Positions 16,875 through 25,906 of a stretch of 64,000 bases of DNA are shown piece by piece (within the stretch, counting starts at the first letter, position 1; each line of letters opens with the position of its first letter). Source of the DNA: Escherichia coli. GTDB lineage: Bacteria; Pseudomonadota; Gammaproteobacteria; Enterobacterales; Enterobacteriaceae. A program made the translations under genes and the position numbers. The notes beneath the pieces are model-generated. The model was not told where the DNA came from. It saw only the letters and a list, made by a program, of their open reading frames with translations, and ran no database searches. The stretch lies in NCBI RefSeq assembly GCF_029227855.1, contig NZ_CP074356.1. One strand, written 5' to 3'.

Positions 16875-18007
16875 GACTGAAGATTCTCCGCAAGCCAGGT
16901 CGCCAGTTCGCCCGGCGTCATGGCGGCTATTTGTGCACCGACATTAACCAGTGCCTGGGCCATATCGCGGTCATAGCAAGGTGTTGCGGTGCTATCGAGC
17001 GCCGCCAGTCCCAGCACTTTGACGCCGCTCTGGACACACTTTTTCACCTGATGCGTCAGCAATGATGATGAACCCCCTTCATAGAAATCGCTCACGAGGA
17101 TAATGACGCTTTTCGCTGGTTGTTCAATAAGTTGCCGACCATACTCCACGGCACTGGCGATATTGGTCCCGCCGCCCAGTTGTACTTTCATTAATAACTC
17201 TACTGGATCAGCAACGTCTGCCGTGAGATCAACGACGCTGGTGTCAAACGCCACCAGATGGGTACGAATGCCGGGTAACTGCCATAAACAGGCCGCCATC
17301 ACCGCAGAGTGGATCACCGAATCGACCATCGATCCGCTTTGATCAACCAGTAAGACCAGTTGCCATTGTTCGCTTTGGCGTTTAATGCGGCTGTTAAAGC
17401 GGGGGGATTCGATATACAACTTGTCGTGTTGCGGGTGCCAGTGTTGCAGGTTGGCGCGCAGAGTACTTTTGAAATCAAAGTTTCGCGCCAGTGGAATAAA
17501 TGAGCGGCGACGGCGATCGCGGACACCAGAAAAAGCCTGACGAACTTCCTTTGCCAGTCGCGCCATAATTTCTTCAACTACCTGGCGCACTATCCGGCGG
17601 GCGGCAGCCAGCACTTCGGGATTCATCAGATGTTTGGTGTGCAAAACGGCGCGTAACAGGCTTTCAGAAGGCTGCATACGTTCCAGCACGTCGAGATTCG
17701 TCAGCACATCTTCAATGCCGTAGCGCAGTACGGCATCGCTTTCCAGCCGCTCGATCACCTGTTGCGGAAACAGCGTGTGAATACTGTTGATCCACTCAGG
17801 GGTGGTGAGATTTGAGCCACCTAATCCACCAGAGCGTTCACCACGCTGGAGCCGTTCAGGATCGCGCCCATACAGCCACTCCAGCGCGTGGTCTATCTGC
17901 CGGGCGTTGTCATCCAGCCCACAAAGGGTCGTTTCTGCCGCTTCGCCAAGAATTAATCGCCAGCGTTGTAGCTCACGGGTGGTCAGAAGATCGTTCAGTT
18001 CAGACAT
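16871..18007 (-). CDS. yehP: von Willebrand factor A domain protein YehP
   Basis: ORF track gives 16871-18235 but the upstream part overlaps yehM; start MSELNDLLTTRELQRW gives 378 aa; MIDAS motif LVDQSGSM; start overlaps yehM stop by 8 nt. Confidence 0.8.
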   Translation of the reverse strand: MSELNDLLTTRELQRWRLILGEAAETTLCGLDDNARQIDHALEWLYGRDPERLQRGERSGGLGGSNLTTPEWINSIHTLFPQQVIERLESDAVLRYGIEDVLTNLDVLERMQPSESLLRAVLHTKHLMNPEVLAAARRIVRQVVEEIMARLAKEVRQAFSGVRDRRRRSFIPLARNFDFKSTLRANLQHWHPQHDKLYIESPRFNSRIKRQSEQWQLVLLVDQSGSMVDSVIHSAVMAACLWQLPGIRTHLVAFDTSVVDLTADVADPVELLMKVQLGGGTNIASAVEYGRQLIEQPAKSVIILVSDFYEGGSSSLLTHQVKKCVQSGVKVLGLAALDSTATPCYDRDMAQALVNVGAQIAAMTPGELATWLAENLQS

Positions 18008-20231
18008 GGAAAACTCCCCAGTGTTGCAGCGATGCCAGTGCCTGCTGTTCGAGTTGTTGATGATGTGCAATGGCTTGTGGTGGACAATGCAACGGCATTT
18101 GCAGCGCTGAAACGGGAAGCTGTGCGAGCTGGTAATGCTCAAGCACCTGATGCGCCAGCGTCCCGCGTTCTCGTGGTGGTAGCCAGGCCATCGCTGCGCG
18201 TAAATCGGGCAGGGCGTTAATAAAATCGTCGTCACTCAGTTGATTTAAATGACTACTGAAACCGGCGATAAATGCCGGCTGACAGGCCAGTTGATGGCGG
18301 GCCAGCGCCAGCATCGTCAGCGCCGCTTCGGCACTGGCGTTGGGATGTTCCAGACGCATTAGTGCGCCAAGAGCCGCGCTGCGATCCAGCGCCGGGGCAT
18401 GAATCGCCTGACTGCGGCGCTCCAGTAAGGCTACCGCCGCAGAAAGCGAAACGCCGGGTAAATTAACGCCGCTATGTAGATCGCGCAGGATATGGCAAAG
18501 CGCCTGCCAGCTATGCAGGTGAGCGTGAAACTCCTTTTCCTCCGGTCTGCCGTTGGATTCACACAGCCAGAGTGTGCGATCGATAGCCGCGCATAACGTC
18601 GTCTGTAATATCTGCGCGCCTTGCATACCGCTAATTTCATCCAGCCGCCATAAGGCGTATAGCACTTCCAGCGCCTGGCCCATTTCGGCAAACTGATTTT
18701 CCTGGGCGATTAATAATGTAAGTTGCTCCAGTAATTGTTGACTGAAGGACGCCAGACCCGCTAACGCCGCCTGGCTAAGACATGTGGTGATACTGCCGAT
18801 TCCACCCGCGTCCAGCATATCGGCTTCTAATTTATTGCGTGCGGCTTCCTGGAGTGTGGCACCAAAGCAGGCGGCCTCAATCAATGCCGCATGCTGGCTA
18901 AGCGGGCGGGTTAATTTCCAGCGTTCTTCACCGTTGCCTGCAAGTGTCAGTGTGCTTCCCTGCTGGCGTACAATCCCTGGGATCTCCAGTATTACCAGCC
19001 GATGTAACACCTGACTTTGCGCCAGTCCATCGGGGGTAAAGCGATTTAAGGTAAGCTCTGCCGGAAGAGAGATTGTGGTACGTTCCAGTTCGCAGGTGAC
19101 ATCTTTTGGCAGAGGCGGCTGTGGCGTAGAGGGGGCAAGTTTACCGAATCCGCCACCCGCTAATGTGTCTATCAACGTTAGCAGAATCGGATCGGTATCG
19201 GGATGAATAACGCCGCGATAGCTCCACGGCAACGGCGCGTTCAAGGCTTCTTTAATCAGCGAGCCTGCTATGGCATCCAGCCAGTCAGTGCGTAACGGTA
19301 GTGTATGACCGCGCAACTGTGCCAGCGCCATCGCATGCAGATGAGCGGCAGCCATATCAGCGGTAGAAGCGGGCAATTTGTGCTGGCGCAAACGGGTAAG
19401 GATAGTTTTTAGCAGTTGTTCACCGGCCTGCTGTAGGCCCCACTGCCAGCACCAGTTTTGCCAGACCGGGGCAGGCATACCAGAAAGGTATCCTGCCAGC
19501 ACATCAAGGCGCTTTTCACTGTAGGGGGTGAGATAACAACCTGTAACGGCATCTGCCAGCTAGGGCAATTCCGGCGTGTTAATTTCCTGCGTGTATTCGC
19601 GCCACATCTTTGCCAGTGCCGGAGCATGCCAGCCGCCGCAGACGACTAACACGTCGCCATTGTTTTGCTGCATCGCCCATCCAATCCAGCGGGCCATAAA
19701 GGCTTCGCGCTGACGATTGAGGGCATCTCCGGGGGAATCGCCCCGCAGTTGTGCAAAATAGTGCGCCAGCGCAGAGGGTAATGCAGTTTGCTGGCTTTCA
19801 TCTTCGAACAAGTGATCCCACAGGGTGTCGCTGTTATCCATGCGGGTGGCACGCAGCAGTAAGGTCTGGCTGTCATCTTGCGTATCGGGTGATTCGTCTT
19901 CTTCTTCACTCTGCGCCCAGCAAGGCAAATCGATGAAGTAAGTTTGTGCCTGAATACGACGTGCGGCTTGTAGCGCCTGCCACTCCGGCGAAAATTCAGC
20001 AAATGGCGTCCAGGCACCACGCCCGGGGGCTGCACCGTCCTGATACTGGCAATAACTGTAAATAGCTACCGGAAGCTGGTGGGCTAAAAACAGTTCGTCT
20101 ACCCGGTCATTAAAATCAGCCGGGCCTTCAATCAACACGTATCGTGGCCGCTGGCTTTCGATTAACGATTTCACCAGCCGGGCGCAGGCCGGACTATGAT
20201 GCCGGATGCCGACAATTAACGGCTCGCTCAT
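18000..20231 (-). pseudogene. yehM: yehM interrupted by an in-frame TAG (amber) stop at 19560-19562
   Basis: ORF-track pieces 19560-20399 and 18000-19502 are in the same reading frame, separated only by TAG; N-terminus MSEPLIVGIRHHSPACARLV recognised as YehM. Confidence 0.65.
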
Positions 20232-25200: not shown

Positions 25201-25906
25201 TAGCAACAACTTTTAACCACTCCTTAGAATGAAAATGAGTCCACGGGCATTCAAGGCTTACCAACTCATTGGCGATTTCTGGTTTTTCCGGGAGGATCAG
25301 AGCAATAAAAGGGCGGCGAACTTTGGTTATTCCTGGCAGTGCGGCAATGAGTTTGTCGGCGCAACGCTGCCAGCTGCTTTCCTCTGCCAGAGAGAGATGC
25401 TTACGCAGTCGGAGATCGAATTCGTTATAGGTTTCTGATCGATAACCATAGCCATAATCCTCGTTCTGATACTGCAATGTCACTAGCAGAGGATCACTTT
25501 CATAACATCGTGTAATAAACTGGCGTGCAATCACCACCTCAGTCGCATATTCCAGTCCCTCTTGTTGGACGATTTCGTCGAGCAACTGTTGGCTATCATT
25601 TTGCGCGATACAGGCTAGCGCCGCCATTGTCCGGGCCGGAACTGAGGGTTTGTGTTCGCCAATCAAGTTGATGGCCTGCGTAATGGCCGACTGCCACTCC
25701 AGTGAAAAATTTTCATAACGCCAGACAATGTTTTTTTTCTTCTCAGCTTTTTGTAGCAATTCATCACCCAGTGTCTGGATGAGGCTTTCAGTGATAACAG
25801 GCACCGGTTCGCCCGGCCAACTGCGATGGCTGAGCGGCGTTTTGCCTTTTTTATATTTCAGTTCCACTTGGGCGTTATCCGCCAGCCACGGTAATTCCTT
25901 GTCCAT
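22276..25906 (-). pseudogene. yehI: yehI (MolR-family paralog lacking the N-terminal WGR domain) split by a frameshift near 23546-23604
   Basis: ORF-track pieces 23546-25906 and 22276-23604 are in different frames; start MDKELPWLADNAQ; both halves align with the two upstream paralogs across the break. Confidence 0.65.

Follow-up and report, generated by a model that had tools for sequence, protein, structure and literature searches.

The yeh block of Escherichia coli was analysed in a stretch of 64,000 nucleotides (hereafter the window; RefSeq assembly GCF_029227855.1, contig NZ_CP074356.1), in which three of four consecutive genes, yehM, yehL and yehI, are broken. The clustering of these lesions is best explained by the decay of one functionally linked, normally silent and conditionally useful cassette. 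We consider that a single conserved multi-gene cassette has decayed stepwise under relaxed selection, and would give this reading a probability of roughly 80%. For this strain alone, that amounts to the routine decay of a non-essential operon, already flagged in public annotation. The wider interest is that a large proportion of E. coli lineages, among them K-12, O157:H7-type genomes and the genomes that carry a yehK frameshift, have a broken copy of a five-component cassette whose conservation extends from Enterobacteria to Burkholderiales. Intact copies are under purifying selection and are unusually divergent, which makes the yehLMPQ and DUF4132 genes a conditionally useful system worth testing. 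K-12, with its split molR and truncated yehQ, is a poor background in which to study it.

That the block is one unit is indicated by its gene order. The same arrangement of WGR-DUF4132 (in one to four copies), AAA_5, DUF5682, VWA and SWIM proteins recurs in Serratia, Klebsiella, Variovorax and Pseudoduganella, which justifies treating the yeh block as a single locus. In Klebsiella the cassette is syntenic with that of E. coli, and in Serratia, Variovorax and Pseudoduganella it lies amid unrelated neighbours. Proteins with the architecture of a WGR domain (PF05406) plus DUF4132 (PF13569) adjoin the cassette in these other genera also. E. coli has between 1 and 3 copies of DUF4132, and Pseudoduganella up to 4.

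Lesions in yehM, yehL and yehI

The lesions were defined by aligning the genes of the window, base by base, to the intact genes of K-12. All of the yeh genes are on the minus strand, in the order yehQ, yehP, yehM, yehL, yehK, yehI and two large DUF4132 paralogues, followed by IS200C and metG. The yehM gene (18000 to 20231, minus strand), which when intact encodes a DUF5682 protein of 759 residues, carries two lesions. At codon 224, TCG (Ser) in K-12 is replaced by the amber codon TAG (19560-19562, minus strand, altered base 19561). Judging from an AlphaFold model and its fold matches, this S224* change would truncate the protein within an N-terminal TraB/ChaN-like domain, ahead of its last strand (residues 228-236); a 500-residue open reading frame (ORF) persists downstream. 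The second lesion is a 48-bp in-frame deletion between 9-bp direct repeats (TGCTGGCGC; the retained copy is at 18305-18313, minus strand), and is a signature of replication slippage.

The yehL gene (20242 to 21319, minus strand) encodes a MoxR-type AAA+ ATPase of 362 residues when intact. It has lost 11 bp (TCAAGTATGGC, nucleotides 356-366 of the K-12 gene) at the junction 20964/20965, which takes out codons 119-122, past the Walker A motif (GEPGTAKS, residues 83-90) and within the AAA_5 domain (residues 79-220). The shifted frame stops at codon 152, so that Walker B and everything beyond it are lost. In yehI (22276 to 25906, minus strand), the gene for a DUF4132 protein of 1210 residues when intact, TT is absent from a run of five T (K-12 nucleotides 2355-2356), the remaining run being at 23550-23552. 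The gene is thereby split into ORFs of 786 residues (23546-25906) and 442 residues (22276-23604), which overlap by 59 nt. Pfam places DUF4132 at residues 186-370 of the downstream, 442-residue ORF, leaving the N-terminal 786 residues severed from it. Phase variation at this T run was considered and rejected, the run of five being short and the allele a singleton.

Positions 10000-34000 of the window match E. coli JNEC-KY178 (NZ_AP045174.1), with 100% identity over 16000-28000; across the full 64 kb, six single-nucleotide polymorphisms (SNPs) and one indel separate the two. The window must therefore derive either from this strain, in another assembly, or from a very near relative. The indel, which may reflect either uncertainty in an assembly or a genuine difference in length, is in a run of T at 38400-38407 (eight bases in the window, seven in JNEC-KY178) that lies between yehE and yehD, upstream of the yeh fimbrial operon.

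In JNEC-KY178, the Prokaryotic Genome Annotation Pipeline (PGAP) marks yehM as having an internal stop and yehL and yehI as frameshifted, and it marks no other gene in the 64 kb as a pseudogene. The first-pass annotation, made from the letters of the window, had reported disruptions in these same three genes amid intact flanking genes, and both the K-12 alignment and PGAP bear it out. The three lesions that it listed stand, but it overlooked the fourth, the 48-bp deletion in yehM. In the sense used by PGAP, all three genes are disrupted in comparison both to K-12 and to at least 15 intact alleles. Under random placement, three pseudogenes within four consecutive genes out of about 55 coding sequences (CDS) have a probability of about 0.006. 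Two 50-kb control stretches from the same genome contain a single pseudogene (yhdJ, internal stop) and no frameshifts, from which it follows that the JNEC-KY178 assembly is not riddled with indel errors.

It could be argued that the genes are still functional, through read-through of the amber codon, programmed frameshifting or a YehI made in two pieces. The 500-residue ORF left after the amber would be compatible with this, as would the 59-nt overlap between the halves of yehI, the C-terminal one having its own ATG and a complete DUF4132. However, most E. coli alleles are uninterrupted, implying that there is no conserved recoding signal. In addition, the 11-bp deletion removes four codons from the AAA+ core between Walker A and Walker B, and the amber codon falls within the conserved N-terminal domain of YehM. 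We therefore attach almost no credence to this explanation.

A dead haplotype and a recombinant block

Carriers of each lesion were counted in 5426 complete E. coli genomes using short lesion-centred queries, built in such a way that a 28-base match can be seeded in carriers alone. Of these genomes, 214 have the yehM amber and 215 the yehL deletion, the two being on one haplotype (about 4% of genomes). The yehI deletion and the junction of the 48-bp yehM deletion were each found once, in JNEC-KY178, and no lesion is therefore fixed across the species, an outcome that would have refuted the first-pass reading. These counts modify the description of the lesions as three independent ones. They are indeed separate mutations, but the yehM amber and yehL deletion are a linked, inherited pair on a recombinant block, and only the yehI frameshift, together with the 48-bp deletion, is private to this lineage. 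The strains M217, DETEC-P666, EC16 and one named 'ST38' carry the yehM amber and the yehL deletion, with yehI and the remaining genes intact.

The counts also bear on whether all of the lesions, or just the two private ones, are sequencing or assembly errors in one assembly. The yehI lesion is a change in homopolymer length (from five T to three), it and the 48-bp deletion are each in one record of the 5426, and the disagreement at 38407 makes homopolymer length doubtful in either the window or JNEC-KY178. Nevertheless, the amber and the 11-bp deletion recur in 214 to 215 assemblies from many laboratories, in agreement with the first-pass annotation, which had argued against random sequencing error. 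The 48-bp deletion lies exactly between its 9-bp direct repeats, which is classic for a real mutation and not for a base-calling error. Among about 150 other CDS of JNEC-KY178 that were inspected there are no frameshifted genes, and both private lesions are common to the window and JNEC-KY178, which differ from each other elsewhere. It is also the case that a 2-bp error in a run of five bases is unusual in sequencing error profiles. Taken together, this makes an artefact very improbable.

The limits of the block carrying the pair were found from SNP profiles of the window against M217, EC16 and DETEC-P666. The window matches the M217-type haplotype almost exactly between 19154 and about 33460, with six SNPs in 14.3 kb. 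Outside this block, the divergence is 0.6-4% on the yehQ side and approximately 1-2% beyond the right edge. The last divergent SNP on the left is at 19153, placing the left recombination breakpoint in the interval 19154 to 19559, inside yehM; to the left of this interval the divergence is 2-4%. Because the near-identity is limited to the block, the yehM of the window is a chimera, with its breakpoint just 3' of the amber codon. The right edge, at about 33460, is within the 5' end of the second DUF4132 paralogue (29723 to 33520, minus strand).

Comparison of these sequences indicates that homologous recombination has carried the dead block from one diverged background to another, and the transfer could have been in either direction. 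The yehQ-yehP-3'yehM allele of the window has no close match elsewhere, the next best genome being 98.2% identical, and since this allele is unique, either side may have been the imported one. A single base in 50 kb separates M217 from strain 'ST38', so that most carriers may belong to one clonal group or share one long common block. The sequence evidence for a recombinant origin accordingly applies to one case, that of this strain. It is worth adding that the 5' regions of the two DUF4132 paralogues (29508-29693 and 33318-33503) have in common a 186-bp stretch of 88.7% identity, and that the differences from M217 at 33464-33516, at the right edge of the common block, lie within this stretch. 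Gene conversion between the paralogues is thus possible there.

The series of events begins with an ancestral haplotype in which yehL lost 11 bp and yehM gained the amber codon, in either order; each of the two changes should be enough to disable the YehL/YehM module. By homologous recombination, a 14.3-kb piece of this dead haplotype came to lie within flanks that diverge by 1-4% from those it usually has. This lineage subsequently gained the 48-bp slippage deletion, in a yehM that was already dead, and the 2-bp deletion in yehI. The cassette is presumably useful under some conditions alone and normally silent, so that loss-of-function alleles would be nearly neutral and would recur across E. 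coli; with the ATPase module dead, the partner genes would be expected to drift.

Loss and selection at the cassette across E. coli

For a population sample, every third chromosome row of an evenly spread match list was taken, and the annotation of the resulting 16 genomes was used. At least one cassette pseudogene is present in 12 of the 16 (95% confidence interval 48-93%). Pseudogenes make up 15 of 116 cassette gene instances against 0 to 2 of 108 flanking ones (Fisher p between 5e-5 and 2e-3). When lesions were recomputed from the sequences of 19 genomes, 16 distinct alleles emerged, located in yehM, yehL, yehI, yehK, a DUF4132 paralogue and, in K-12, yehQ; in the same 19 genomes, yehP, mlrA, btsS, btsR, yehS and yehR were free of lesions. 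yehQ is intact in all 18 of the non-K-12 genomes compared. The first-pass annotation had suggested relaxed or negative selection at this locus from its three lesions, and the pattern holds up in this larger sample.

Individual alleles can be very common. The yehM change Q510* is present in 301 genomes, typically of O157:H7 type, L275* in a DUF4132 paralogue in 706, typically K-12-like, and a yehK frameshift in 911 genomes, for example ATCC BAA-2469 and Esc4. With the haplotype studied here, these four loss-of-function alleles account for 2132 of the 5426 genomes (39%). In K-12 itself, yehQ stops 52 codons early (17101-18945 in the numbering of the K-12 stretch), and the DUF4132 paralogue (yehF/yehH, molR) is split by L275* plus an additional G (4475-8270 in the same numbering), and hence the reference strain is not an intact example of the system. 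Published reports describe the deletion of yehM and yehL in lineages 2 and 3 of S. sonnei (PMC12795559), and a blaCTX-M-15 transposon within the DUF4132 region in ST131 sublineage L1a (PMC9334617). As far as our literature searches show, the wide extent of loss in the species (at least 39% from four alleles) seems not to have been described before. In two Shiga-toxin-type genomes, STECUZB006 and strain 140, mlrA (yehV) is disrupted, with prophage genes next to btsS, and the yeh cassette of these lineages thus adjoins a prophage integration site.

The picture resembles the operon-wise accumulation of pseudogenes at dispensable loci of E. coli and Shigella, where the same kinds of lesion (nonsense, frameshift and slippage) occur in linked neighbours with intact flanks, and different lineages have different lesions. 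The molR/yehH gene of K-12 is a textbook case of such decay at the yeh locus; here it is instead yehL, yehM and yehI that are broken. Decay here differs from the usual case in that a recombinant block brought in two of the lesions.

Pairwise Nei-Gojobori estimates were made of synonymous divergence (dS) and of the ratio of nonsynonymous to synonymous divergence (dN/dS). In the flanking genes, dS is 0.04-0.06 and dN/dS is 0.006-0.05. In the cassette dS is 0.08-0.15, which is 2-3 times that of the adjacent housekeeping genes (14874-33520 compared with 10000-14800), and dN/dS is 0.037 for yehL, 0.058 for yehP, 0.12-0.13 for yehQ and yehM, and 0.19-0.24 for yehI, the paralogue and yehK. The yeh locus is a recombination mosaic. 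The combination of low dN/dS with high dS implies that the genes have been functional in the long term and that their alleles are deeply divergent, yet young knock-outs are frequent. In sliding codon windows, informative dN/dS values peak at 0.5-0.7, midway along the DUF4132 proteins. A value of 1.0 occurs once, in a window with almost no variation, and no informative window exceeds 1, giving no sign of positive selection by this measure.

Within yehI and paralogue 1, all five of the substitutions that separate the window from the M217-type dead haplotype are nonsynonymous (including window positions 24092 and 24466 in yehI, and 27097 and 27433 in paralogue 1). Two of the five are derived on the branch of this strain, at sites that are otherwise conserved. 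Five out of five has a probability of 0.007 if dN/dS were still 0.2, and of 0.24 under neutrality. Few as these data are, they suggest that the loss of YehL and YehM leaves the DUF4132 genes free to drift.

A different explanation for the same observations is that loss has been adaptive. The cassette would then be a costly or autotoxic conflict (defence) system whose knock-outs are positively selected, with the dead haplotype spreading because it is advantageous. Loss of function is certainly recurrent (16 alleles in 19 genomes), dead alleles are found in very successful clones (the 301 O157:H7-type genomes, the 911 with the yehK frameshift, and ST131 L1a), and a dead block has been transferred between diverged backgrounds. 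Synonymous divergence of 2-3 times that of the flanks, together with a variable number of DUF4132 copies, is typical of conflict loci, and the pairing of MoxR with vWA resembles that of regulated conflict systems (PMC7159879). On the other hand, a search with PADLOC (PADLOC-DB 2.0) of all eight proteins matched no family at E up to 0.01. The literature on yehL, yehM, yehP, yehQ, DUF4132 and DUF5682 yielded no functional study and no experimental or bioinformatic assignment to defence (one of the searches was swamped by unrelated words). The lesions are spread over different genes, including single paralogues and yehK, as would be the case for neutral hits, and the codon windows described above do not exceed a dN/dS of 1. 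Finally, the spread of the haplotype may be clonal or due to hitch-hiking, given the single difference between M217 and 'ST38' over 50 kb. Selection for loss of a costly defence system is thus a possible reading by analogy, which we regard as unlikely, and the likeness to such systems drawn in the first-pass annotation finds no direct support here. Relaxed selection on a conditionally useful system fits best.

Several observations nevertheless weigh against stepwise decay under relaxed selection. Neutral decay and selection for loss are indistinguishable with these data, and the signal of relaxed constraint comes from five substitutions. In three out of four carriers of the haplotype that were examined, yehI, yehP, yehQ, yehK and both paralogues are intact ORFs, which means either that the follow-on decay is slow or that the haplotype is young. 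The two private lesions are found in JNEC-KY178 and the window, which may not be independent assemblies. Lastly, two of the lesions counted in other genomes, an additional A in a run of seven in yehI and a T missing from a T run in a paralogue, are in what are possibly long-read-only assemblies and could be errors.

Components, relatives and neighbours of the cassette

The other members of the cassette are intact in the window, with ORFs that agree with the PGAP products. The last gene of the yehLMPQ operon, yehQ (14874 to 16874, minus strand), encodes a SWIM zinc-finger protein of 666 residues, with the Pfam SWIM domain at residues 56-88. yehP (16871 to 18007, minus strand) encodes a vWA-domain protein of 378 residues, homologues of which have VWA_CoxE or VWA_2 domains, and overlaps yehQ by 4 nt and yehM by 8 nt. 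yehK (21895 to 22215, minus strand) encodes 106 residues. Beyond yehI are the two large paralogues, the first (25916 to 29710, minus strand) encoding a WGR plus DUF4132 protein of 1264 residues that is the counterpart of K-12 molR/yehH, and the second, located above, a DUF4132 protein of 1265 residues.

Intact YehM matches Pfam DUF5682 over residues 20-715, a family for which no literature was found. Its AlphaFold model has a predicted local distance difference test score (pLDDT) of 83.7. The modelled N-terminal domain has a fold like those of TraB, ChaN (2g5g), HopBA1 (5t09), EreC (6xcq) and RRSP (5w6l), that is, the TIKI/TraB/ChaN/erythromycin-esterase-like fold, and is predicted to be followed by a helical-repeat C-terminus of about 500 residues, which YehM has in addition to this fold. 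Sequence identity to these members is 10-13%. Invariant in the YehM domain are R10, H11, E35, H51, C198-G199-G200 and H202, so that the modelled fold would hold invariant His and Glu residues and a Cys-Gly-Gly-x-His motif. Several members of the superfamily are metal-dependent hydrolases, and YehM may perhaps be a hydrolase also.

In YehL, the AAA_5 domain (residues 79-220) is matched with an E value of 2e-33, with a weak match to bpMoxR. By sequence, its sole relatives of solved structure are the AAA modules of Midasin (E about 1e-7), and searches of the PDB by sequence gave no match for YehM, YehQ, YehI or YehP. NCBIfam gave weak, sub-threshold matches alone, to GvpN/MoxR-like and cobaltochelatase-like families. 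Midasin couples rings of AAA_5 modules to a vWA/MIDAS domain. The likeness of the cassette to these Rea1/Midasin machines lies in the YehL match and in this coupling; in contrast to them, the cassette is a bacterial operon whose components are small proteins made separately, with no context of ribosome biogenesis.

A further comparison is with the MoxR-vWA-centred ternary conflict systems of Kaur, Burroughs, Iyer and Aravind 2020 (PMC7159879). The core pair is present, yehL (AAA_5) and yehP (vWA) being in one operon, of adjacent or overlapping genes, with large partners, and in both cases the partner components vary between genomes in copy number and sequence. However, the third component of those systems (VMAP, an inactive STAND NTPase (iSTAND), FtsH, or a beta-propeller fused to the vWA) is absent from the yeh cassette, whose partners are instead DUF5682, SWIM and WGR/DUF4132 proteins; YehP, unlike the vWA proteins there, is not fused to an effector domain. 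SWIM is not mentioned as a word anywhere in PMC7159879. Since none of the four defining partners is present, the cassette has not been filed as a member of this group.

The cassette could still be an unrecognised ATPase-gated conflict or abortive-infection system, kept polymorphic by a trade-off between protection and self-harm. If so, this would explain its synonymous divergence, the variable DUF4132 paralogues (as 'sensors') and H-NS silencing, as well as why epidemic clones repeatedly carry knock-outs and why a dead block has spread horizontally. Assignment to any defence family fails in the tests that were run (PADLOC and the third ternary component), and we hold the idea only tentatively, as a rather improbable one. 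The decay of a conditionally useful cassette remains our preferred reading.

The spacer between yehK and yehL contains two neighbours that do not belong to the cassette. An OrzO-P-type antitoxin small RNA (sRNA) is at 21431 to 21506 on the minus strand (Rfam RF02083, 101 bits against a gathering score of 60). On the plus strand, at 21752 to 21841, is an ORF for a hydrophobic, type I toxin-like peptide of 29 residues (MDTLTQKLTVLIAVLELLVALLRLIDLLK), recognised from its translation and the adjacent OrzO-P match, which we take to be ZorO-like from the zor-orz locus. An OrzO-type sRNA with a hydrophobic ORF about 250 bp away on the opposite strand is the arrangement of a zor-orz type I pair. A 272-bp segment that holds the zorO-orzO-like pair is missing from K-12, and spacer lengths of about 300 to 1240 bp occur in other strains. 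At the other end of the block, an IS200C transposase gene and an STnc490 sRNA (33732-34323) lie between the first DUF4132 gene and metG. This insertion is promoter-proximal to the DUF4132 genes, and is absent from M217 and EC16.

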